In this document: positions 42,299 to 59,884 of the stretch, in pieces
Numbering within the stretch: position 1 is the stretch's first letter
Layout: the number at the start of each line of letters is the position of its first letter
Assembly (NCBI GenBank): GCA_963769885.1
Contig: CAVYNH010000001.1
Location: 1 to 64,000 of the forward strand
Origin: Methanobacteriota archaeon
GTDB lineage: Archaea > Thermoplasmatota > E2 > DHVEG-1
DNA length: 64,000 nt
Direction of reading: 5' to 3'
The notes under the pieces: model-generated
What the model saw: the letters and a program-made list of their open reading frames with translations, nothing else
Told to the model about the DNA's origin: nothing
The model's database searches: none
Position numbers and translations under genes: made by a program

Positions 42299-42371
42299 GG
42301 GCCTGTGGGGTAGCTTGGTATCCTTGTGGCTTCGGGAGCCATCGACATGCGTTCAAATCGCATCAGGCCCA
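42299..42371 (+). tRNA. tRNA-Pro (CGG)
   Basis: Acceptor stem GGGCCTG/CAGGCCC+A; anticodon arm gtggc-ttCGGga-gccat; T-arm atgcg-ttcaaat-cgcat. Confidence 0.96.
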
Positions 42372-42430
42372 TTATCTTCTACAGGAGAAAAGTCTGGTAA
42401 CAGACCCAAATTTGGCGTTCTGTTGGTTTT
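42358..42430 (+). repeat. att-like site A: tRNA 3' core plus right arm
   Basis: tcgcatcaggcccat, then caggagaaaagtc...ggcgttctgtt shared with site B and in part with site C. Confidence 0.85.
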
Positions 42431-42595
42431 TTCCTTGCCTCGCTTTCCTGCTGATAGTTGTGTTGGTTTTTTGTATATAATTAAAGGGCTTGATTCATAA
42501 TTCCCTGATGGAGGAAAAGAAGAAGGGATATCGCATCCTAATCGACATGAAATATGATAAATTGAAAAAAGGAAAAAAAGAGGAGAGGTAGGTAA

Positions 42596-43984
42596 TCATT
42601 GACCGCAAGTTCTGCAGCTCAGGTGGGGTACGAGCTGCACGTCATTAATTGAAAATAAAAACAATTTTGCTGTTGCGATAAATGGTGGGCAATCATCGAT
42701 AACAATAGTCATTGTGATTTTACCTATCCCAAGAACAAAACCATTTATACTTTCGGTTGCGTACGGTAAAAAGTTGGGTATCATGCCACTCTTATGTGCT
42801 CCAAGAAGTATAAGTCCACCAGTTATTGTGACACTCCACGGTACGTTAGTTAAAGTTTTATTGCAAATGTTATAGAAATAAATATGATACCCGGGGCCTC
42901 CTGTTATGTTGACATAGAAACAGCATTCGCCGCAGACAGGAGTGTCTTCTATGATGGGCGCTGAAGAATTCTCATCGCTCGTTGCAAATGCCATATTATG
43001 GATTATGGTTCCATTCGCGGTTTCTGGACGGACAAGAACTAGCAGCCAGACGCATTTGGTTGAGTTCGCTATGATTGTACCGATATCCCAACGGACCGTA
43101 CGGCTGCTAATGTTATAGCCTGGCGAGGCGTCTATGAAACCCGTTTCATTCGGGAGCTGATCGGTGATAATAACATTATGTTGGGTAGATGCATGTGCGG
43201 ATGTGCAAATTGTGTAATTAATGTACTCGCACTGCCATACGCAATCGGTTTCGTTGAGGTTGTCAGTCTTTGTAATTATTAAGTGTGAGCCGCAATCGAT
43301 GTATGCTTCGATTAGCCAGTTGCGATCCCAAAGACTACCGTAACTCTGTAATTCAATCCAGCCTGAGCCTGAACCGTCATTATACCAGTCGCCCTTCCCA
43401 TCCACGGCCGGTCCTGAATCGAACCCTATTGGGATTTCATCGGGATCCTGGACCATCTCCACTGATATCCATAAGTCTTCCGTGCAGTTAAATGGTACCG
43501 GCGTCGAAAGGGTTACTACAAACCAGCCTGAATCATTAACGAAATAGGGCTGTGAACAGAGGAGCTGGCCTGGTGTAGTAGGAGTTCCCTGCCTATATAT
43601 TTTGATGTTTCCATGAAGATAATTTGCATCCCAGTGATAGAACTGAACAGCGGTGAGCCGACAGCCGCAATACGGCGCGAGTTCAGTAGGGGTTAACCGT
43701 ATCGCTGCTTCCCATGTAGCCCCGCCTGATATTTTAAATCCAACCCATTTGTTTGTATAGTAGTAATAGAGCCATCCTCCATTACAAATCGCGCAGGGTG
43801 TGCCTACTTCATGGTTTGTCTGTTGATGTGTAGCATCGTGAGTGTTTGTATCGAGTAGAAATGGCGCTGTATTTTCTGACTTTTTAATATCTGCCGTCAC
43901 CATAAGTGATGATAAGATCAGGAGCAACGCAATCATTACAATACCAGCATCTTTCAAAATAGTTTTTCCACCAATAGATTTCAT
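42596..43984 (-). CDS. Secreted protein with a DUF11-like Ig domain and the recurrent C-terminal domain (unit 1 cargo)
   Basis: Signal peptide; ITKTD...ITDQLP...RWDIG; ITGG..G...W...GGLILLG tail. Confidence 0.8.
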   Translation of the reverse strand: MKSIGGKTILKDAGIVMIALLLILSSLMVTADIKKSENTAPFLLDTNTHDATHQQTNHEVGTPCAICNGGWLYYYYTNKWVGFKISGGATWEAAIRLTPTELAPYCGCRLTAVQFYHWDANYLHGNIKIYRQGTPTTPGQLLCSQPYFVNDSGWFVVTLSTPVPFNCTEDLWISVEMVQDPDEIPIGFDSGPAVDGKGDWYNDGSGSGWIELQSYGSLWDRNWLIEAYIDCGSHLIITKTDNLNETDCVWQCEYINYTICTSAHASTQHNVIITDQLPNETGFIDASPGYNISSRTVRWDIGTIIANSTKCVWLLVLVRPETANGTIIHNMAFATSDENSSAPIIEDTPVCGECCFYVNITGGPGYHIYFYNICNKTLTNVPWSVTITGGLILLGAHKSGMIPNFLPYATESINGFVLGIGKITMTIVIDDCPPFIATAKLFLFSINDVQLVPHLSCRTCGQ

Positions 43985-44326
43985 CGTTTTCCTCCTTCCC
44001 CAAAACTCAGGTTATGAAAAGAAAATCTCTCGAGGGTATTTATATTTTTTTGTCTGAAATCTTATGAAATAGAAATGGTAAAAAAACCGATGTCGCGCTT
44101 CATTTGGCGTTCTCATGAATTTCCTTTCTTTTAATAAAGATACTTTTGGAACCTTGTTTAAAACTCTATTTACCCACAATTGATGCTGGGACGCCGTGGT
44201 CATTTTAGATTTTGCGATCTATTCCTGCTTTTTCTATCCTATTCTTGATTGACGTATTTCCTAGGTTGTTTGGGCTTTATGGGAGCCTTTCTAAAAATAT
44301 GTGTGAGTTAAGTATGGGAAAACATG

Positions 44327-44512
44327 AGAAAAAAAAGAAAGAGAGAGTCGGATTCAACCGTCCTTAAAACCGACAGGCCTAACAACCGCGTTCTGTCGCC
44401 GAGAATTCCTCCTGTTGACCAGATGCAGGTCGCATCAGGCCCATCATCTTTTCCAGGAGAAAAGTCCGGCGACAGAGCCAAAAACGGCGTTCTGTTAGTT
44501 TTTCGGCCTCGC
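44327..44512 (+). repeat. att-like site B: left arm, core (44430-44444) and right arm; dyad centred at 44434
   Basis: tctgtcgccg (44392) / cggcgacaga (ends 44476); ctcctg (44409) / caggag (ends 44459). Confidence 0.88.
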
Positions 44513-44614
44513 AGGCGGATATTTGCCCGCGTTCTTTTATTTTCTGAAAACATTTAAATAAATCCATGGGATAGCTCTTCTTTGCTGTTTTGGAAAGAAG
44601 GAGGAATAGAGAAT

Positions 44615-45100
44615 ATGAGGGAAAAAATAATTGGAATATTTGCAATAGTTCTGTTGATAGCACCTGTAATGCCAGTTTCAGGGGCATCCGAAAAAAATAG
44701 TAGTATTTCACCAGTCCCTTCTAATAGTGTTATTAAAAATGGAAATAGAGATTTAGTTTTTAATGGTGTTATTAAAAATTGTGAATTAGATATAACCTTT
44801 GACAGATGGGTTTTAAATTTGCCTATCGGAATACCTAACAAAATATTTGCGGTTTTATTTTATTTTTATGCTCAGGATGCTGGTACAACCGCGGAACCTT
44901 CGAATACGCATTTAAAAATCACAGGTGGAACTAAAGTATCTGGTGACGGTGATATACCTATTGATGTCACCTGTTCCTGGTGTACATTTGCTTTGTATGG
45001 ATTCTTTGGAACGAGTTCTGTCACCCCCCTAATTTCCCTTGGTGGTGAAATTAAGGGTGTTGCAAAGAGAGCAAGATTTGACTGTGGTTATCCAACATAA
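44615..45100 (+). CDS. Secreted hypothetical protein (unit 2 cargo)
   Basis: MREKIIGIFAIVLLIA signal peptide, aggagg RBS. Confidence 0.75.
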   Translation: MREKIIGIFAIVLLIAPVMPVSGASEKNSSISPVPSNSVIKNGNRDLVFNGVIKNCELDITFDRWVLNLPIGIPNKIFAVLFYFYAQDAGTTAEPSNTHLKITGGTKVSGDGDIPIDVTCSWCTFALYGFFGTSSVTPLISLGGEIKGVAKRARFDCGYPT

Positions 45101-45126
45101 AAATAATGTCAATTAATGTCTTCTAA

Positions 45127-45729
45127 GCGAGAAATCCCCATGCTTTAGCGTGGGGATGAATCGCGTCATTTTTCTTCAAAAATTCGTTACCACGTACTGG
45201 GTGGACGCGCCCGCAGTCGCGGGCGCTCTGAAGCACCTGCCCAGGACATCTTGTATGGAACTTATTAGCAGTAGCCATAGCGTAGGCCAGAATATATACC
45301 ATTTGGAATGGTGCCCGAAATACCGCTACCACATGATGCGACGGGAGGAAATCCAAAAACTAATCGAGAATGTGGTGCGTGATGTAGCAGCACGGCATCA
45401 CATCACCGTCATCGAACTCAGTGTGATGCCGGACCACATCCACCTGGTTGCCGGCCTCCCGGCGACCATGAGCGTCTCCTCCGCCCTCCACCTCCTCAAA
45501 GGAGCCTCCTCCCATGAGATCTTCCTACGGATTCCCGCCTTCCGAATGCGGTACCCCCGGGGAGCCTTCTGGAGCCCCGGGAAATTCTTCCGCACCATTG
45601 GCGACGCCAATACAGAAACCGTGATCAACTACGTCAGAAACCATCGATTCCAACAAGCCACCCTTGACGGGTTTCCGGGGACAGCCTAACCCCCGGAAGC
45701 CCCGGCATTTATGCCGGGGAGGATGTCAC
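45127..45729 (+). mobile_element. IS200-type element (tnpA only)
   Basis: Left hairpin atccccatgctttagcgtggggat; right hairpin ccccggcatttatgccgggg followed by TCAC; left boundary approximate. Confidence 0.85.
45255..45689 (+). CDS. tnpA: IS200/IS605 Y1 transposase TnpA
   Basis: HLEWCPKYR, PDHIHL (HUH), LKGASS, FWSPG, NYV. Confidence 0.93.
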   Translation: MELISSSHSVGQNIYHLEWCPKYRYHMMRREEIQKLIENVVRDVAARHHITVIELSVMPDHIHLVAGLPATMSVSSALHLLKGASSHEIFLRIPAFRMRYPRGAFWSPGKFFRTIGDANTETVINYVRNHRFQQATLDGFPGTA

Positions 45730-45790
45730 ATTCAATTTTTTTTTTATCATCGATTAGCATAAAACATGAGTCAAAACCGTGTCACTGCTT

Positions 45791-45937
45791 CTAAGGAACC
45801 TTTCTTATTCGTAGTTCACCAGCACCGATGGGTTCAATGCTCAACCGGTCTCCTGCTTTGAGGTTGTAGAGATCACAGACTCGCTTCGGCAGGGTGAGAA
45901 TCATACTGTCGTTGATCTCACGAATTGTTCGTTCCAT
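45791..45937 (-). CDS. AbrB/MazE-type DNA-binding microprotein
   Basis: RTIREINDSMILTLPKRVCDLYNLKAGDRL. Confidence 0.75.
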   Translation of the reverse strand: MERTIREINDSMILTLPKRVCDLYNLKAGDRLSIEPIGAGELRIRKVP

Positions 45938-46101
45938 ACGGAAAACGATATAGTTTTTTAATGTTAAATCGTTTGGGATTTCCATACGAATCAGGATTCG
46001 AAGGCACTGGTTTTTTTGGTACCGGTCTACAGATTCAGATAAGCATATTCTACCGGTATTTCAGTATTCGAATCCCGATGTGGGCGTGTAAACGTGCAAT
46101 A

Positions 46102-46251
46102 AGAAAAAAGAAAAGAAAGAGAGAGTCGGATTCAACCGTCATTAAAACCGATAGGCCTAAAAACCGCGTTCTGTCCCCGAGAATAACTCCTAGTGACCAG
46201 ATGCAAGTCGCATCAGGCCCATTAACGTCTACAGGAGAAAAGTCGGGCGAC
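46102..46251 (+). repeat. att-like site C: left arm, core (46208-46222) and shortened right arm
   Basis: ~100-bp left arm nearly identical to B (gagagagtcggattcaaccgtc...); dyad centred at 46212. Confidence 0.88.
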
Positions 46252-46498
46252 GATGTTGGTGTCAGGGCGAGGCTCTTGGTCTGACTTCTTCGTTAAAATA
46301 GGGGATTCTGCAGATATGTTTTTAAAGAAGTAAAACCAGGTTCTGAATCCCTTCTGTCATGTATTTTTATCTTTTACAGACATTTATATCAAGCTACAGG
46401 ATAACAAATGGCAAGGAGGAACAGGTTCTTATACAGAATAGCTGGTTAAAGTAAATCCTGTTTTGGTAATTTTAGAAAATAGAAGGAGGAAAAAAGAA

Positions 46499-47686
46499 AT
46501 GAAAACGAAAATCATAGGAATATGTGTAGGTATGCTGATGTTCGCCACTGTTCTTTCAGTGGCAGCGCCGATAAATAAAAATGTCACGGAAGTTACACCC
46601 GTTACGTCTCCGTTCGCTGGAAACACAGGAGCTCCTTCGGTGTCACCGCTTTCTCAGATAAGTACGTTACTTGGGAAAACTGTGTACGGATCCAAGGTAT
46701 ACCCTCCTTATCCATGTAAGGAGCTTGTTTCGTTCACCTTGGATAACCCTGGCACCATCAACAATATTACTAATGCGACCTCGAAATATTTCCTTTCTGG
46801 TGGCTGTTGGGCGAATGGCGTCTGGTGGGGCTGCGAATATTCAGGGTGGTCAGATAATAACTCTAAGATATGGAAGATCAACCCCACAACTGGGAAAATG
46901 ACTCTAGTCGGTCCCTCTAATACCCACGATGATGAGAGTCTGCAAGGGCTAGCGTATGATGACACAACTGGCACCATGTATGCTTGTAGTCCCATTAACC
47001 TCTATACTATCGATATGCTCACAGGTAACGCAACACGGGTGGGTTCCTATCTGGGACATGTTATGATAGGTATTGCATGTGATTCCAAAGGGAACCTGTA
47101 TGGGGAAGAAGTAGGGAACCCGGGGTCTCTCTATGCTATCAACAAAACGACTGCACATATCAGTTTAATTGGTCATTTCGGCTTCTATCTCAACCATTGT
47201 CAAGATATGGCATTTGATAAAGATAATGATAAATTATACCTCGCAGCTTTAACTCAGAATGGAACAGAAAATGAAGGTGCGTTGTACTACTGTGATCAAA
47301 ACACGGCAGCATGCACAAAGATCGGTATTTTTGGAACCAACCTCACTGAGATTGACGGGTTTGCTATACCCTATACATCTGATGTTGAAATAAATGGATT
47401 GAAAGGTGGAATCGGCGTACACGCGACCATAAAGAATACTGGTACGGTCAATCTCAGTAGCGTGAAATGGAGTATTGTCTTAGAAAAAGGTCTCATCATT
47501 CTGGGCAAGAAAAGTAACGGGACAATACCCTCCCTCTCTGTTGGTCAATCCGTAGATATCAAAACAGGCTTAATCCTTGGATTCGGAATGCCGAGGGTTA
47601 TGATTAAGGTCGAAACTCCTGATCATTTTATAGAGAAAACTGCGAAAGCGACGGTATTGTCATTCTTCGTCCTTGGGGTAAAGTAA
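46499..47686 (+). CDS. Secreted beta-propeller-like protein with the recurrent C-terminal domain (unit 3 cargo)
   Basis: MKTKIIGICV signal; LY.ID..TG..T.VG repeats; KGGIGV.ATIKN.G...W...GLIILG tail. Confidence 0.8.
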   Translation: MKTKIIGICVGMLMFATVLSVAAPINKNVTEVTPVTSPFAGNTGAPSVSPLSQISTLLGKTVYGSKVYPPYPCKELVSFTLDNPGTINNITNATSKYFLSGGCWANGVWWGCEYSGWSDNNSKIWKINPTTGKMTLVGPSNTHDDESLQGLAYDDTTGTMYACSPINLYTIDMLTGNATRVGSYLGHVMIGIACDSKGNLYGEEVGNPGSLYAINKTTAHISLIGHFGFYLNHCQDMAFDKDNDKLYLAALTQNGTENEGALYYCDQNTAACTKIGIFGTNLTEIDGFAIPYTSDVEINGLKGGIGVHATIKNTGTVNLSSVKWSIVLEKGLIILGKKSNGTIPSLSVGQSVDIKTGLILGFGMPRVMIKVETPDHFIEKTAKATVLSFFVLGVK

Positions 47687-47971
47687 CCCTCCTCTTTTTT
47701 TCTTTTTTTTCTTTTGTCTTTGATTCGCACAAAAACCCATGTGTTTTAAACCTGTCACTGCGTGACCGCTCATAGGAGATGAAGTAATATGTCTTTGTTT
47801 TCTGCGTGCGTCCAGGCGTGCTGAGCGCGGTTTTTTTTACGCAAACAGCGCGTCGTCGGGTTGCTTCCGTAGGCGGTGCGTCGGTTTCCTCTGGGCCATG
47901 GTTTTATTTTTATCGTGAATTTTACTCCTCTTTCATGGTAACTGTTATATAATAGAAGAGGTGTACCGAGT

Positions 47972-48292
47972 ATGGGGGCCTACGGCCTCTTTATTGCGGG
48001 GGAAAAGAATATTTTCAACAATCGGCGGTCAGAAATCGATATTATGCAGGAGATTTTGACGCTGACGCAGAACAGTGCCCGAAAGACGCAGATCCTTTAC
48101 CAGGTGAACCTGAGCTACACACTACTGAAGAATTATCTCATGTTCCTTATAAGCAATGACTTCATCCGTGAGGTGACGGTCGATAACGATCATAATCCCT
48201 ATTCGGCCTACCAGCTAACTGAAAAGGGTCATCTTTTTATGAAGGATATTAAAAAAGTGCAGTCTCATTTGAACGGAAAATTTTTTTGGTAA
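47972..48292 (+). CDS. Winged-helix transcriptional regulator (COG3432-like)
   Basis: RRSEIDIMQEIL, KTQILYQVNLSY, YQLTEKG. Confidence 0.85.
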   Translation: MGAYGLFIAGEKNIFNNRRSEIDIMQEILTLTQNSARKTQILYQVNLSYTLLKNYLMFLISNDFIREVTVDNDHNPYSAYQLTEKGHLFMKDIKKVQSHLNGKFFW

Positions 48293-48518
48293 CTTTTTTC
48301 TCACACCCGCAAAAACAACGGGAGAGATAGAACATTGTTCTAGAACAATGCTTCTGCTCTTCTTATAACCCCGAGGGTATTTATTTTTTGTAGGCGAATG
48401 ATAGCAGGAACGTGGTGTTCCGTTTTCGTTCGTATATCTGGGGGAGACACTCGGCTTTGCACTCCGCCTTGCATAAGAAATCAAAGCAGAAGTAACTGAA
48501 AAGGAGGAAAAGGTAACC

Positions 48519-55423: not shown

Positions 55424-56608
55424 ATGTGGTACCTCATCCTTGGACTTCTCGGGCTCCTCTACCTGGCATCCAACACCATCCTCCCTAGCCAAGGCACCAT
55501 CGGCACCTACCTCCTCCAACCCCTCCTCTGGATAGGCCTCGCCATCCTCACCTTACTCGTCGCCAAAAACGAAGACCTCAACATCCTCAAGTTCAAACGT
55601 GTCTCCCACTGGTACTTCGGCAACTCACCCCTCCAGGCCGGCCTCCTCATCGGCGGCCTCCAAGTCACCCTCCTCATCCTCGTCGGCGTCTTCACCGGCT
55701 TCGGAAAAAGCCCCAACAGCTTCACCCCCACCCCCCTCATCCTCAACCTCGTCTTCGTCGCCTCCCTCCTCACCGGCACCGAGATCACCCGCGCCTACCT
55801 CATAAAACGCGGCACGCAAACCCGCAGGCACACCACCCTCGTCCTCATCGCCGCCACCGTCATCTACGCCGCCTTCCAACTCACCATCACCCAGATCCTC
55901 ACCCTCACCACAAACACCCCCATCATCCTCCTCGAATTCCTCGGAAAAACCGTCATCACCGCCATCGCCATCAACCTCCTCGCCTCCTACCTCTCCTACA
56001 TGGGCGGCGCCACCGCCTCCCTCAGCTACATCGGCATCCTCACCGCCTTCGACTGGTTCTCCCCAATCCTCCCCAACCCCCACTGGACCATCCTCGCCCT
56101 CATCGGCACCATCATCCCCGCCATCGGCTACTCCCTCATCCAAAACTCCATCCGAGAACCAGGCATCAAAAAACACCGGAAACCACACCGAACCACCGCC
56201 GACGGCTATGGCTGGACCGCCGTCACCGTCTTCAGCGTCCTCATCGTCTTCTTCTCCTTCGGATACCTCGGCGTCAAACCCACCGTCATCTACAGCGGCA
56301 GCATGCAACCAGAACTCCAAGTCGGCGACCTCGCCATCATCCAAAAAACCGACCCCGCCACCCTCAAAAATGGAGACATCATCCAATTCAACAACGACAA
56401 CATGACCCTTATCCACCGCGTCATCAACATCACCTCACAACAAGGCCAGACACTTTATACCACCAAAGGCGATGCCAATAAAGACCCCGACATCCCCCCC
56501 ATTAAAGAAGACCAAATCATCGGCAAATCCATCTTCACCATCCCCAAGATAGGATGGATACAAATCCTCGTCAAAGACCTCGCCAGAAAAGCAGGCATCA
56601 AAGTCTAA
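55424..56608 (+). CDS. SipW/Sec11-type signal peptidase I fused to a multi-TM N-terminal domain
   Basis: YSGSMQP, GD, IHRV (Ser-His), TKGDAN..D. Confidence 0.9.
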   Translation: MWYLILGLLGLLYLASNTILPSQGTIGTYLLQPLLWIGLAILTLLVAKNEDLNILKFKRVSHWYFGNSPLQAGLLIGGLQVTLLILVGVFTGFGKSPNSFTPTPLILNLVFVASLLTGTEITRAYLIKRGTQTRRHTTLVLIAATVIYAAFQLTITQILTLTTNTPIILLEFLGKTVITAIAINLLASYLSYMGGATASLSYIGILTAFDWFSPILPNPHWTILALIGTIIPAIGYSLIQNSIREPGIKKHRKPHRTTADGYGWTAVTVFSVLIVFFSFGYLGVKPTVIYSGSMQPELQVGDLAIIQKTDPATLKNGDIIQFNNDNMTLIHRVINITSQQGQTLYTTKGDANKDPDIPPIKEDQIIGKSIFTIPKIGWIQILVKDLARKAGIKV

Positions 56609-56625
56609 AAAAAAGAGAATGCACC

Positions 56626-57876
56626 ATGAGTAGAGCCAAAAACAGAAAAGCCAGGACCCTCCCCAGAAAAACCATCCCACGGACACCGCGGTACATCATC
56701 ATTGCCGTAATCAGTGTCATCCTCATCTACGCCCTCACCAGCACCTACCTCGCCTACCAAACACCCACGACACAACGACAGACCCAAACCATCGTCCATT
56801 ACTCAAACAACGGCCGCTTCACCTACCTCATCTACCTCCACAACAACACTATCTACAATAAAACCGTCCTCTACCCAGAAGAAGGCATCATCTTCACCCA
56901 ACTCCTGGACCACATCAACGCCACGTTCACCTACACCTACGAAATCAACACCACCTCATCCATCAGCGGCAACTGCAGCATCCTAGGCATCATCCAAACC
57001 AACCTGTGGAGCAAAACCTTTTCCCTCCGCCCCCAAACCCCCTTCAGCGCCATGGGACAGTACGCCACCGCGACCGTGGACTTCCCCATCGACTACGCGT
57101 ACTTCGAACAAGTCTTAGAAGAAATCAATACAGAGACCGGCGTCCCGGCCCAAAACCCCGTCCTCATCATCCAAAGCCATGTGACTATCACCGCGCATAC
57201 AAACCAAGGGGCCGTCTTCACATCCTTCTTCCCCGCCTTCAACCTGACCCTCGGACAGCGAACCATCGATGTTTCAAAGAATCTGATCTCCAGCGACCCG
57301 GGATCATTAACAAAAACAATAACGATAGAGACCCCTAATATCCAATCCCAGAGAAACAACTGGTCCATCATCAGCATTATCACCCTCCTCGGGCTGGCCT
57401 CAGTTGTACTATTCACCGCGAGTCCTGTCGAAACAAAAACAAATACAGTGACCGAGGTCAAAAAAATCAAGAAGAAATATAACGAGTGGATTGTCGAAGC
57501 AGACGAACATCCGGATGCTGCGGAAGCCCGCATCGTTTCCATTAAGTCAATCCAGGATCTCGCTAAAATCGGAGAGGAACTCGGGAAGCCCATCATCCAT
57601 TATTCCCCAAAAAACGAGAACGACAAGAACAATACCTTCTATGTCATCGATGAAACAGTCTTTTATGAATACGTGCTCAAGCCAGCGGAGAGCAGCAAAA
57701 AAAGCACCACCTGCCCACAATGTGGGGCAACCATCGACTATGAGGAAAATGCAGGACGAAAAGTAACCTTACGATGCCCGAACTGTGGAAGTAAGGCAGT
57801 CGCTGACGTATCTGAGGAAAAACCCTGGTCAAATCTGTTAGCTCGAATAAAAAAACGAAGACTCAATGGCAAATAA
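56626..57876 (+). CDS. DUF5305-like membrane-anchored protein with a C-terminal double Zn ribbon
   Basis: Two TM helices; SIQDLAKIGEELGKPIIH; CPQCG...CPNCG; adjacent to the SipW gene. Confidence 0.7.
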   Translation: MSRAKNRKARTLPRKTIPRTPRYIIIAVISVILIYALTSTYLAYQTPTTQRQTQTIVHYSNNGRFTYLIYLHNNTIYNKTVLYPEEGIIFTQLLDHINATFTYTYEINTTSSISGNCSILGIIQTNLWSKTFSLRPQTPFSAMGQYATATVDFPIDYAYFEQVLEEINTETGVPAQNPVLIIQSHVTITAHTNQGAVFTSFFPAFNLTLGQRTIDVSKNLISSDPGSLTKTITIETPNIQSQRNNWSIISIITLLGLASVVLFTASPVETKTNTVTEVKKIKKKYNEWIVEADEHPDAAEARIVSIKSIQDLAKIGEELGKPIIHYSPKNENDKNNTFYVIDETVFYEYVLKPAESSKKSTTCPQCGATIDYEENAGRKVTLRCPNCGSKAVADVSEEKPWSNLLARIKKRRLNGK

Positions 57877-58624: not shown

Positions 58625-59884
58625 TTATGGGGTGTTTACGATGAGGAGGAACCCGAGGAGGAGGCCGGTGGTGGTGACGGTCTGTTTGCCGGCGTTCTTC
58701 GCGGTGGTGTGGACTTGGATTTGGACTTTGCCAAGGGCGAGGAGCGGGATCCGCTGCGTCTCGGCCTGTCCTGGCGTCAGGGTGTCGATGGTGTCGGAGA
58801 AGCTGAGGTTGATGTCGTTTTTCCGGCCGCCGGTGATCGTGATCGTCCATTTCAGCTGCGTCAGGTTCGTTGTGGCTGGGTTGTAGAGTCGGACGCGTAG
58901 GCCGAGGGGTCCGCCGTGGATTTCGATGCCGGTTTTCGGGGGGTAGACGACGTAGGCGGCGGCATAGCCGACCTTGCAGCAGCCGTATTCGATGTACATG
59001 AAGCCGTTCTCGCCCCAGTAGGGTCCCCAGGAGTTTTTCAGGATCCAGCAGCCGTGCTCGCCGAGGGTGTCGTCCCAGCCGACCAGGGTGACCGCATGGT
59101 TGATGTTCGCGGGGGAATTGTTGTTGAAGACTCCGCCGGTGTAGGCGCCGAAGGCTTCGTTGACGGCGACGCCGCTGGAGACGGGCCCGTAGGTGTAGAT
59201 TGCGTTCTTTATTGCCTCGGTGCTGGGCACTCCTTGGTTGACGCCGACGTATTTCCATGAGTCGAGGTGGTACGGGTGATGGTAGGGGCCGTCGCAGGGT
59301 GCGTCCTCGGCGACGTACGGGAAGCCCTGTTCAAGGACCGCGCCTGAGCCGTCGAATGTGTCAGTACGCCATTGGTGGTAGTCGTGGGCGTACCAGCCGC
59401 CGTTGCATCCCCAGTGGTTCTGGTTGCAGCTGACGAGCCATTGTTCGGAGAGGTCGACTTCGACGTGGTCGTGGATGAGGATCGCGCTTTCCATGGGTCC
59501 GACGGTGCCGAAGGCCCAGCAGCTGCCGCAGCCGTCTTGGTCCTTGACGCTGGAGACGCCGTTGTGGTCCCGCCAGTCCCATCGGTCCGGGAGGGTGGTG
59601 GTGGGCAGGCAGGGGTCGAAGCTGGCGTTGACCCACCAGTCTGCTGGCTCGACGAGTCCGCAGAGCTGTGAGAATGGGCGCTGGGTCGCGGGGTTCTCTC
59701 CGACCGTGAACGTCCAGCCGTTTTCTGTTGCGTGTTGCTGCATGGTGGCGATGTCTGCGGGGGTCAGCCAGGGCGTGGTGCCGGTCGTCGTGAGGGAGTC
59801 AAGCGTGCATCCGCAGGAGCCGAGGACGGTTGGTGTGATGAGGGTAAGGAGGCATAACAGGCAGGGTATCCAGGGGGTTTTCAT
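58625..59884 (-). CDS. Secreted papain-family (C1A) cysteine protease with the recurrent C-terminal domain
   Basis: QDGCGSCWAF, NHAV, KNSWG. Confidence 0.95.
   Translation of the reverse strand: MKTPWIPCLLCLLTLITPTVLGSCGCTLDSLTTTGTTPWLTPADIATMQQHATENGWTFTVGENPATQRPFSQLCGLVEPADWWVNASFDPCLPTTTLPDRWDWRDHNGVSSVKDQDGCGSCWAFGTVGPMESAILIHDHVEVDLSEQWLVSCNQNHWGCNGGWYAHDYHQWRTDTFDGSGAVLEQGFPYVAEDAPCDGPYHHPYHLDSWKYVGVNQGVPSTEAIKNAIYTYGPVSSGVAVNEAFGAYTGGVFNNNSPANINHAVTLVGWDDTLGEHGCWILKNSWGPYWGENGFMYIEYGCCKVGYAAAYVVYPPKTGIEIHGGPLGLRVRLYNPATTNLTQLKWTITITGGRKNDINLSFSDTIDTLTPGQAETQRIPLLALGKVQIQVHTTAKNAGKQTVTTTGLLLGFLLIVNTP

Follow-up and report, generated by a model that had tools for sequence, protein, structure and literature searches.

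The window analysed here, a stretch of 64,000 nucleotides from contig C1 of the Thermoplasmatota genome G000, carries a tRNA-Pro(CGG) gene behind which three units follow one another (Table 1). The window contains three exact copies of the 15-mer TCGCATCAGGCCCAT and no more, while 0/100 shuffles yielded three matches; the three copies of the tRNA 3′ end listed in the original prediction were thus confirmed by exact matching. Copies A and B are 2072 bp apart and copies B and C 1778 bp. These direct repeats of the tRNA-Pro(CGG) 3′ end delimit the units, as expected of an element that targets tRNA genes. A low-GC island of foreign composition (38-47% GC vs ~60% GC in the flanks) starts at 42372, exactly where the tRNA ends. 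Past unit 3, nhmmer arm profiles detected neither a left arm nor a core that would close the array, in line with the earlier remark that no closing attR is visible, and the end of the island is undefined.

Table 1: Features of the tRNA-Pro(CGG) locus, with positions in the window.
Feature	Positions	Strand	Basis
tRNA-Pro(CGG), probable integration target, attB side of attL	42299-42371	+	ARAGORN
Core copy A, tRNA 3′ end + 1 nt	42358-42372	+	15-mer match
Right arm A, integrase 3′ stub, about 38-51 codons including core	42373-42469	-	tblastn, translation, nhmmer E 5e-27
Unit 1 cargo, 462-aa secreted-type protein with DUF11 domain	42596-43984	-	ORF, Pfam
Left arm B, putative distal attP arm	44325-44429	+	repeat comparison; nhmmer E 4e-31
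Core copy B	44430-44444	+	15-mer match
Right arm B, integrase 3′ stub of about 22-24 codons	44445-44515	-	tblastn, translation, nhmmer
Unit 2 cargo, 161 aa, signal-peptide-like N-terminus, no Pfam family	44615-45100	+	ORF, Pfam
IS200-type insertion sequence in unit 2, tnpA 45255-45689	45113-45729	+	Pfam Y1_Tnp E 4e-28
Unit 2, 64-aa AbrB/MazE-like protein, weak match below Pfam cut-off	45791-45985	-	Pfam
Left arm C	46104-46207	+	repeat comparison; nhmmer E 2e-27
Core copy C	46208-46222	+	15-mer match
Right arm C, integrase stub of about 12-13 codons	46223-46258	-	translation; nhmmer
Unit 3 cargo, 395-aa secreted-type protein, DUF4394-like propeller and C-terminal domain shared with unit 1	46499-47686	+	ORF, Pfam
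Low-GC tail of the island, including wHTH gene 47972-48292	47687-48400		composition

Every core had been described as followed by the same right arm. This is true of A and B, which are 85% identical over 74 nt, but C has only about the first 35-45 nt in common with them: right arm C is truncated inside module M, and its nhmmer match covers model positions 1-51 only. The left arm of ~100 nt ascribed to copies B and C was recovered in both, with 89% identity over 145 nt including the core. Left arm B is made up of a polypurine tract, module M (44370-44401), CTCCTG (44409-44414) and a spacer of 15 nt in which a hairpin resembles the T-arm; right arm B contains CAGGAG (44454-44459) and a second module M (44468-44497). 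That the arms form inverted repeats around the core holds for joint B (44392-44414 and 44454-44476: 23 nt, 78% complementary, 39 nt apart, centre 44434), but the repeat is weak in joint C, whose right arm is truncated. Similarly, when folded as ssDNA, site B gave z = -4.1 to -4.8, whereas site C did not fold (z = -0.3). The inner hairpin GATGC-N5-GCATC was found in both B and C, as predicted.

With the intact integrases of relatives as tblastn queries, the right arm was recognized as the 3′ end of a tyrosine-integrase gene on the minus strand. The integrase tail matches the window at 42469-42356 (E 9e-5) and again at 44508-44437, and the minus-strand frame of stub A ends in ...NGPDAI-stop within the tRNA T-loop. 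The site is thus not the free-standing, attC-like palindrome that had been proposed. The stubs of the window measure about 38, 24, and 13 codons, shrinking with distance from the tRNA, and no other integrase sequence was found in the window by the same search. Contig C1 has no integrase, every PF00589 match of the genome being on other contigs. Because the units have no integrase gene, we filed them as remnants and not as autonomous elements. Intact integrases of the same family are present in the genome at tRNA-Pro(TGG) and tRNA-Arg, where the arm motifs differ (GAGACAC at tRNA-Pro(TGG)); a cognate integrase with the CGACAGA arm type was not found in G000. A second integrase-less array of the same architecture lies at tRNA-Met.

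In relatives, intact integrases of 420-460 aa are convergent to tRNA genes (Pro, Ile, Ala, Val), and at the tRNA-Pro, -Ile, and -Ala loci the same arm lies between the integrase catalytic domain and the tRNA. The expectation that the arms would recur beside a recombinase was therefore borne out. The integrase ORF ends 19-22 nt inside the tRNA in 14 of the 31 distinct loci of relatives. Arms are present in 11/118 genomes of the order, including this one, and mostly adjoin tRNA-Pro. One relative (G129) has a complete, integrase-bearing element of 11 kb bounded by tRNA-core-right arm and left arm-core; in another (G124), a truncated integrase with a 115-aa frame directly follows the right arm, and further integrase C-terminal matches come after the arm in G131, G095, and G040. 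Module M is palindromic and present once per arm, with the half-site CGACAGA in this array. Since its sequence covaries between both arms of one element, as in G129, and differs among elements, it most likely binds an element-encoded protein. No solved structure matched the integrase family at E <= 1, only weak Xer-like matches were obtained in NCBIfam, and no description of the family was found in the literature consulted. This large family, whose tyrosine integrases target tRNA genes of sediment Thermoplasmatota, appears not to have been described previously.

The original prediction drew a parallel with the Aciduliprofundum casposon, which reportedly targets tRNA-Pro with a duplication of similar size. 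As in that case, the target here is a tRNA-Pro gene and the repeat is about 15 nt long. The arms form inverted repeats around it; in a casposon-like or other transposon they would be TIRs, and a Cas1-type or DDE enzyme would have generated the core as a target-site duplication. We give this model next to no chance. The genome, at 92% completeness, yielded no Cas1 (PF01867) match, and the inverted repeats are 15 nt and 9 nt off the core and not flush with it; membership of the casposons was rejected on these two grounds. The right arm also codes for the 3′ end of a tyrosine integrase. Moreover, the intact elements carry a tyrosine integrase with neither polymerase nor Cas1 (the 11-kb G129 element was inspected). 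Arms, core, and integrase homology all agree with the other part of the prediction, that is, a tRNA-anchored tandem array with attP-like joints and att-type recombination rather than TIR+TSD.

A segmental duplication, or a native tRNA-flanking signal (terminator, small RNA) copied locally and involving no mobile element, is very improbable as well. The right arm does adjoin tRNA-Pro genes in several genera and has a hairpin followed by a T-run, but similarity stops at the arms and the cargo differs, the composition shifts at the tRNA end, and the occurrence of the same arm between integrase catalytic domains and three different tRNA genes of relatives is not what such a signal predicts. The homology of the arm to integrases contradicts this candidate, which was rejected.

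Every unit has a gene with an N-terminal signal-peptide-like segment, as judged by eye. The claim of one unrelated signal-peptide gene per unit stands to that extent, but the cargo proteins of units 1 and 3 have a common C-terminal domain of ~88 aa (32% identity, E 1e-8). That no recombinase is encoded is right for the integrase, of which there are 3′ stubs only, whereas unit 2 contains the Y1 transposase of an IS200-type element. This IS of 617 bp, 100% identical to a copy on contig C6 of the same genome (G000:C6:39348-39964), is a later, independent insertion into unit 2. Nor is the cargo limited to secreted proteins, because genes for regulators and metabolic enzymes lie in the tRNA-Met array and on related metagenome contigs. 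In G001, of the same genus, synteny revealed a single unit, its cargo different, that lies between tRNA-Pro(CGG) and an attR, so that the content downstream of tRNA-Pro differs among relatives as anticipated.

With its repeats, its arms homologous to integrase-bearing elements, its stubs, its compositional boundary, and its variable content in relatives, the locus probably consists of three integrative elements that have decayed in tandem at the tRNA-Pro(CGG) 3′ end. As only integrase stubs are present, and their length falls with distance from the tRNA, the most fitting account is one of successive integrations and subsequent loss of the integrase. Autonomous members, seen in related Thermoplasmatota genomes, carry a tyrosine integrase of 420-460 aa whose gene is directed towards the att site and whose last codons traverse the right arm and the att core, and for that reason the integrated ORF stops at a codon of the tRNA T-loop; the left arm is the other attP arm. 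Each new element would recombine with the intact tRNA via the 10-15-nt core and displace the older ones outward, leaving left arm-core-right arm joints. Later deletions may then have removed the integrase genes down to stubs of about 38, 24, and 13 codons, the outermost attR may also have been lost, and the remainder would be captured cargo, here secreted proteins typical of the lineage. We infer this order of events (integration, outward push, deletion), and also that the units once had an integrase and lost it after they had integrated, as opposed to having lacked one from the start. A striking repeat structure is in this way explained by ordinary biology, namely, a long-lived tRNA-Pro integration hot spot where mobile elements deposit accessory genes before losing their integrase. 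Joints so regularly two-armed, and arm motifs that covary, offer clear targets for biochemical tests, as well as sequence signatures by which gene flow in these uncultured archaea can be traced.

She et al. 2001 reportedly described “gene capture in archaeal chromosomes” with tandem degenerated elements at tRNA genes. Tandem integration in archaea, and integrase loss after integration, are on record (PMC8371274), and in the tycheposon islands of Prochlorococcus older elements are displaced into islands, where integrases are fragmented and tRNAs partial (bioRxiv 10.1101/2020.12.28.424599). The array resembles these systems in its site-specific integration at a tRNA 3′ end, the partial tRNA repeat of each unit, newer elements adjoining the tRNA, fragmented integrases, and cargo acquired by capture, and differs in the Thermoplasmatota host, the reduction of all three units to short stubs, the very regular two-armed joints, and an integrase family that is apparently undescribed. 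Cis-mobilisable elements (CIMEs) are known from the ICESt1/ICESt3 family of streptococci, together with an accretion-mobilisation model. Like CIMEs, units 1 and 2 are flanked on both sides by functional-looking att sites, have no recombination or transfer genes (the IS200 being separate), and stand in tandem with related units at one site. Unlike CIMEs, they belong to an archaeal host, no conjugation module was seen in any family member, the array includes no integrase-bearing partner, and mobilisation is putative. The array is best read as CIME-like remnants, a case of “gene capture” by a known route to genomic islands, and not as a new integron-like system.

A different model, which follows the original prediction, is that the units are nonautonomous but continue to be integrated, excised, or reshuffled when a family integrase acts on them in trans. 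They would move alone or along with an adjacent element that has an integrase (by accretion and cis-mobilisation, like CIMEs), with the tRNA serving as an integron-like store of exchangeable genes. We consider this rather unlikely. Complete arms, both M modules included, border units 1 and 2, the integrase-less architecture recurs at tRNA-Met and in G001, G014, G124, L082, and L088, and intact integrases of the same family are available in the genome. Moreover, metagenome contigs contain the joints beta|x, beta|y, and alpha|x between integrase-less units, recombinant exactly at the core: the flanks are 99.5-99.98% identical and the switch falls inside a 47-nt stretch around it. Homologous recombination across these 47 nt of identity explains such joints equally well, however, and the resident integrases have other arm motifs. 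The stubs vary in length, not only among the three units but also in relatives (the 115-aa frame of G124, about 45 codons in L103), for which independent deletions and not a defined cassette end are expected; the dedicated minimal cassette of the original prediction did not survive this signature of deletion decay. Right arm C and the L082 arm are without module M, the left arm-core joints of G014 have no right arm at all, and unit sizes range from 0.66 to 8.3 kb.

The array is similar to an integron in that small gene units are stacked in order, with partly palindromic recombination sites between them, and in that the newest unit probably adjoins the entry site. At its head, however, stands a tRNA gene, and there is no adjacent integrase, attI, or common promoter. 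The units are in mixed orientations and have their own upstream regions, and the sites are double-armed, attP-type, and derived from an integrase gene end, unlike attC hairpins. Neither the IntI/attI/promoter nor the attC features of integrons were thus found, contrary to the integron-like system first envisaged; membership was rejected on the lack of an integrase on contig C1, the unfolded site C, and a palindromy that consists of arm motifs continuing into the integrase ORF. It is doubtful that the attP-like joints form a working gene-cassette system of Thermoplasmatota, in which units with both arms but no integrase would be excised, inserted, and reshuffled at tRNA genes by a family integrase in trans, maybe one whose C-terminus switches between the excised and integrated states. 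If true, archaea would possess a counterpart to the cassette exchange of CIMEs or integrons, one that diversifies secreted and other accessory proteins.

The target of the myxophage Mx8 is said to be a tRNA gene 3′ end. Passages of PMC6070905 on its integrase (IntP/IntX) place attP within the 3′ end of the integrase gene and name attB1 and attB2 as the bacterial sites. The att core of the present family similarly falls within the last integrase codons, as seen in the 14 loci above and in the T-loop stop of stub A, which leads to the prediction that the encoded C-terminus differs between the integrated and excised forms. Unlike in Mx8, the integrated form of this archaeal family has only about 5 codons past the crossover, with a stop from the T-loop, and the tail of 2-46 aa predicted for the excised form shows no coding-type conservation, since its synonymous vs nonsynonymous changes are no different from those of other frames; the integrase frame remains open into the left arm in 8/12 copies. 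The archaeal cases known of “att inside int” are of the suicidal SSV type, in which integration splits the gene (PMC7253208, PMC8371274). With the core in the final codons integration leaves the gene unsplit, and this arrangement is thus the nonsuicidal counterpart.

Some features of the array run counter to decay. A full-length left arm is present at every internal joint examined and neither unit 1 nor unit 2 has lost an M module, a regularity not expected of purely random decay, although ascertainment is biased because the copies were found by arm similarity. Given units of 1.2-2.1 kb vs 10-11 kb for intact elements, large clean deletions would have been needed three times. The recombinant metagenome joints at the core could mean that units still move.

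The tRNA-Pro locus of the window is best read as an array of integrase-deleted integrative-element remnants, a known kind of structure. A window search with the core, that is, the last 14 nt of tRNA-Pro(CGG) plus 1 base, returned three exact copies (A, B and C) and no others, and 0 of 100 shuffles contained three core matches. The predicted tRNA 3'-end repeats with arms are thus real and well above chance. By alignment and repeat finding, the right arms of A and B are 85% identical over 74 nt, and that of C resembles them over its first 35-45 nt only. Copies B and C have in common a left arm of about 100 nt, with 89% identity across 145 nt when the core is included. The GC content is about 60% up to the tRNA end, drops at precisely that point to 38-47%, and goes back up near 48400. 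No closing attR of unit 3, the DNA after copy C, was found by core searches allowing up to 2 mismatches or by profile searches, in agreement with the original prediction, which had described it as missing.

Coordinates of the features of the array, of related loci, and half-sites of the palindromic arm module M (window, analyzed stretch; G000, its own genome; L-numbers, loci or contigs)
Feature	Location	Detail
tRNA-Pro(CGG)	window 42299-42371	sole tRNA of the window (ARAGORN)
Cores A, B, C	window 42358, 44430, 46208	
Inverted repeat, 23 nt	window 44392-44414 / 44454-44476	centre 44434
Integrase tail match (tblastn)	window 42469-42356	38-51 aa, E 9e-5
Second integrase tail match (tblastn)	window 44508-44437	22-24 aa
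IS200-type insertion sequence, 617 bp	window 45113-45729	in unit 2; Y1 transposase, Pfam E 4e-28
Other copy of this insertion sequence	G000:C6:39348-39964	
Genes whose products share a C-terminal domain of ~90 aa	window 42596-43984, 46499-47686, 58625-59884	58625-59884: host-encoded papain-like peptidase (ORF translations)
440-aa gene	window 56554-57876	
Homologue of the 440-aa gene at attR of G001	L019:5481-5881	last ~100 codons
tRNA-Met(CAT) array	G000:C6:590115-599869	cores CCGGGCCCA at 599804, 598432, 590115
Integrase at tRNA-Pro(TGG)	G000:C7:198818-202249 (L029)	intact, 428 aa; arm motif GAGACAC
Example intact family integrases	L075:15235-16497, L077:3166-4437, L076:6686-7957	ORF ends 19-22 nt into convergent tRNA; L077: 423 aa, nearest intact one at tRNA-Pro(CGG)
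ImmA/IrrE-HTH and DUF4411 genes	L075:13275-14926	intact 11-kb element
M half-site, tRNA-Ile element		TCGATAG
M half-site, tRNA-Ala element		TTCGAAAC
M half-site, tRNA-Met array		AGATTG
M half-site, L082		CAGTACT

An association of the arms with a recombinase was borne out in related genomes, where integrase matches immediately follow the right arm. In G124, a genome from another genus, the Pfam scan of relatives placed a partial Phage_integrase match in this position. Its translation ends as a tyrosine recombinase does (R-H...LGH...Y) and is preceded by stop codons, so that the fragment is a stub. With this fragment as the query, the integrase family was found in 80 of the 118 genomes of the order. 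The intact members, of 420-460 aa, are in convergent orientation with tRNA-Pro, -Ile, -Ala and -Val genes, and at 14 of 31 distinct loci the ORF ends 19-22 nt within the tRNA gene. The last integrase codons, G-P-x-x-I, are read from the reverse complement of the tRNA acceptor and T-stem, and the T-loop, read as its complement, supplies the stop codon. The catalytic domain finishes about 55-60 residues ahead of the ORF end. The integrase gave weak Xer-like matches to protein families, and a sequence search of solved structures had no hit at E <= 1.

When the intact integrases were used in tblastn, nothing was found in the window beyond two tail matches, at copies A and B. The minus-strand translation of A ends in ...KTNRTP..FSP..NGPDAI-stop, close to the G124 stub and to the intact tails, and about 13 integrase codons are left in right arm C; the stubs of A, B and C therefore shorten with distance from the tRNA. 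The right arm is DNA coding for the C-terminal tail of the integrase. An extended integrase tail encoded by the left arm was not supported, synonymous and non-synonymous counts being alike in all three frames.

In the myxophage Mx8, the 3' end of int contains attP, and the C-terminus is altered by integration (PMC6070905). The integrase-att arrangement of the Thermoplasmatota family is similar, with the att core in the int 3' end. Since the ORF ends in the tRNA and takes its stop from the T-loop, the C-terminus of the excised form is predicted, as in Mx8, to be different from and longer than that of the integrated form. The archaeal cases of an att site inside int that have been described are SSV-type integrases, which are split on integration (PMC7253208, PMC8371274); compared with these, the Thermoplasmatota family is a non-disrupting variant. 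We found no description, in the literature cited here, of an archaeal integrase ORF ending inside a tRNA with a T-loop stop, and this family with its att site in the last codons is the more interesting by-product of the analysis.

Intact elements of the family were found in two relatives. An element of about 11 kb at tRNA-Ile(GAT) in G129 has tRNA-core-right arm and left arm-core as its edges and encodes the integrase, an ImmA/IrrE-HTH protein, a DUF4411 protein and three PQQ-propeller/PKD proteins; no replication or virion genes were found in it. This arrangement recurs in an element of about 10 kb at tRNA-Ala(GGC) of G083. In the intact 11-kb element the ImmA/IrrE-HTH gene adjoins the DUF4411 (PIN-like) gene, and the two may form a toxin-antitoxin pair or a regulatory one.

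Each arm carries a single copy of the palindromic module M, which in the window reads CGACAGA, about 12 nt, TCTGTCG. The copies of the two arms are in direct repeat, consistent with the direct repeat GCGTTCTGT present in both arms, and the inner arm ends are CTCCTG and CAGGAG. The M half-site varies from element to element and covaries between both arms of one element, a pattern that fits M modules acting as element-specific protein-binding arm sites. The T-arm-like hairpin ahead of the core is present in many copies and is irregular. When folded as ssDNA, site B was strongly palindromic and site C was not, so that the palindromy is a by-product of the arm sites and not an attC-like requirement.

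Three readings were rejected: an attC-like ssDNA hairpin site, since only B folds; an integron, in view of the lack of IntI, attI or a common promoter, the mixed gene orientation and the failure of site C to fold; and a casposon, since no Cas1 was found in the genome, which is 92% complete, the arms are not flush with the core, and the family enzyme is a tyrosine integrase. The architecture of the window matches CIME-like remnants in a tandem array. Of the original interpretation, att-type recombination at the tRNA, the tandem array and the variable cargo were retained, but not the integron-like reading.

The arms occur in 11 of the 118 genomes of the order, G000 counted. The congeneric genome G001 shares the upstream genes, the tRNA and the right arm with the window. 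After these comes a single 2.15-kb unit, which encodes other proteins (one with an MBL fold and one of the membrane) and ends in a partial left arm and a degenerate core; the cargo beyond tRNA-Pro thus differs between relatives, as had been suggested. Against G001, the conserved flank genes restart at window ~57559, and this flank also lies beyond the arrays of genus g18. In other genera the right arms come directly after tRNA-Pro(CGG) or tRNA-Pro(TGG), and left arm-core copies occur in series (n=3 in G014, n=2 in G124). Contigs of relatives often end just past the right arm, as is expected of a variable region. This comparison makes the tRNA-Pro locus an old hot spot with lineage-specific content. 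In G001, attR is joined to the end of a homologue of the 440-aa gene; in the window this gene ends a TasA-like cluster beside the array, and the whole cluster is deleted in G001.

Within G000, BLAST with the arms gave no copies beyond the three places in the window, but genome-wide profile searches revealed another array without an integrase, at tRNA-Met(CAT), so that the idea of arms elsewhere in the genome failed by the first method and held by the second. Its three cores have left and right arms, its units are 1.37 and 8.3 kb, and the region is low in GC. From ORF translations, its cargo was named as an Lrp/AsnC-type regulator, aminotransferase-like and aldehyde-oxidoreductase-like proteins and a 779-aa secreted protein. 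Pattern scans found further left arm-core-right arm joints in two Thermoplasmatota MAG contigs (L082, L088) and three metagenome contigs (L102, L103, L108); the pattern was absent from the scanned viral contigs. The cargo of these contigs, judged in the same way, includes racemase-, amidohydrolase-, response-regulator- and TFIIB-type look-alikes. One secreted protein per unit, as originally described, is therefore no rule. The intact family integrases of G000 lie at tRNA-Pro(TGG) and tRNA-Arg(CCG), with arm motifs that differ from those of the window array. The one at tRNA-Pro(TGG) is adjoined by a long coiled, glycine-rich protein, and the locus may be a resident provirus or island.

We favour a model in which integrase-bearing elements would have integrated successively at tRNA-Pro, with int lost afterwards. 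Tandem integration with integrase loss is on record in archaea (PMC8371274), and in tycheposon islands newcomers push older elements inward, leaving fragmented integrases and partial tRNAs (bioRxiv 10.1101/2020.12.28.424599). Stub lengths vary, not only in the window (the G124 frame has 115 aa and is preceded by stops, and in L103 about 45 codons are left), and unit sizes spread from 0.66 to 8.3 kb. That the integrase-less units are still moved by an integrase supplied in trans, as originally proposed, seems unlikely to us. In favour of it, neither arm has been lost from units 1 and 2, complete left arms are the rule, and recombinant joints exist in metagenome and MAG contigs. Against it, right arms C and L082 are shortened and without M, the G014 joints are without any right arm, and no cognate integrase was found, the family integrases of G000 having other arm motifs. 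Serial integration and int loss are also favoured by the increase in decay with distance from the tRNA, where the outermost attR is absent.

The recombinant joints are beta|x in L108, beta|y in L103 and alpha|x in L102 and L088. The flanks of these contigs are 99.5-99.98% identical and switch inside a 47-nt stretch around the core. Natural populations have thus acquired or shed a block at this point. The joints are explained equally by site-specific recombination and by homologous recombination within the 47 nt. Among the four contigs the block shows a presence/absence polymorphism at the att joint.

The ORFs of the three units match their earlier description: a 462-aa DUF11 protein on the minus strand in unit 1, a 161-aa protein in unit 2 and a 395-aa DUF4394-like protein in unit 3, all with N-termini that by eye look like signal peptides. 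The cargo had been called unrelated in each unit, which does not hold throughout, as the proteins of units 1 and 3 have a common C-terminal domain of about 88 aa. Hundreds of matches to this C-terminal domain (about 90 aa) occur across the order, and its function may lie in sorting or anchoring. Cargo homologues were uninformative on the movement of cassettes: the order has large paralogous families to which the 462-aa and 395-aa proteins can be assigned, and the best matches, at <=54% identity, are in unrelated contexts. In describing the units as free of any recombinase, the original prediction overlooked the IS200-type Y1 transposase in unit 2, although this sits in a separate insertion sequence. 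The insertion sequence is 100% identical to the copy on contig C6, and is therefore a separate, recent insertion. One of its ends is also found at the contig end of G001:C22, and it therefore appears to have been active recently.
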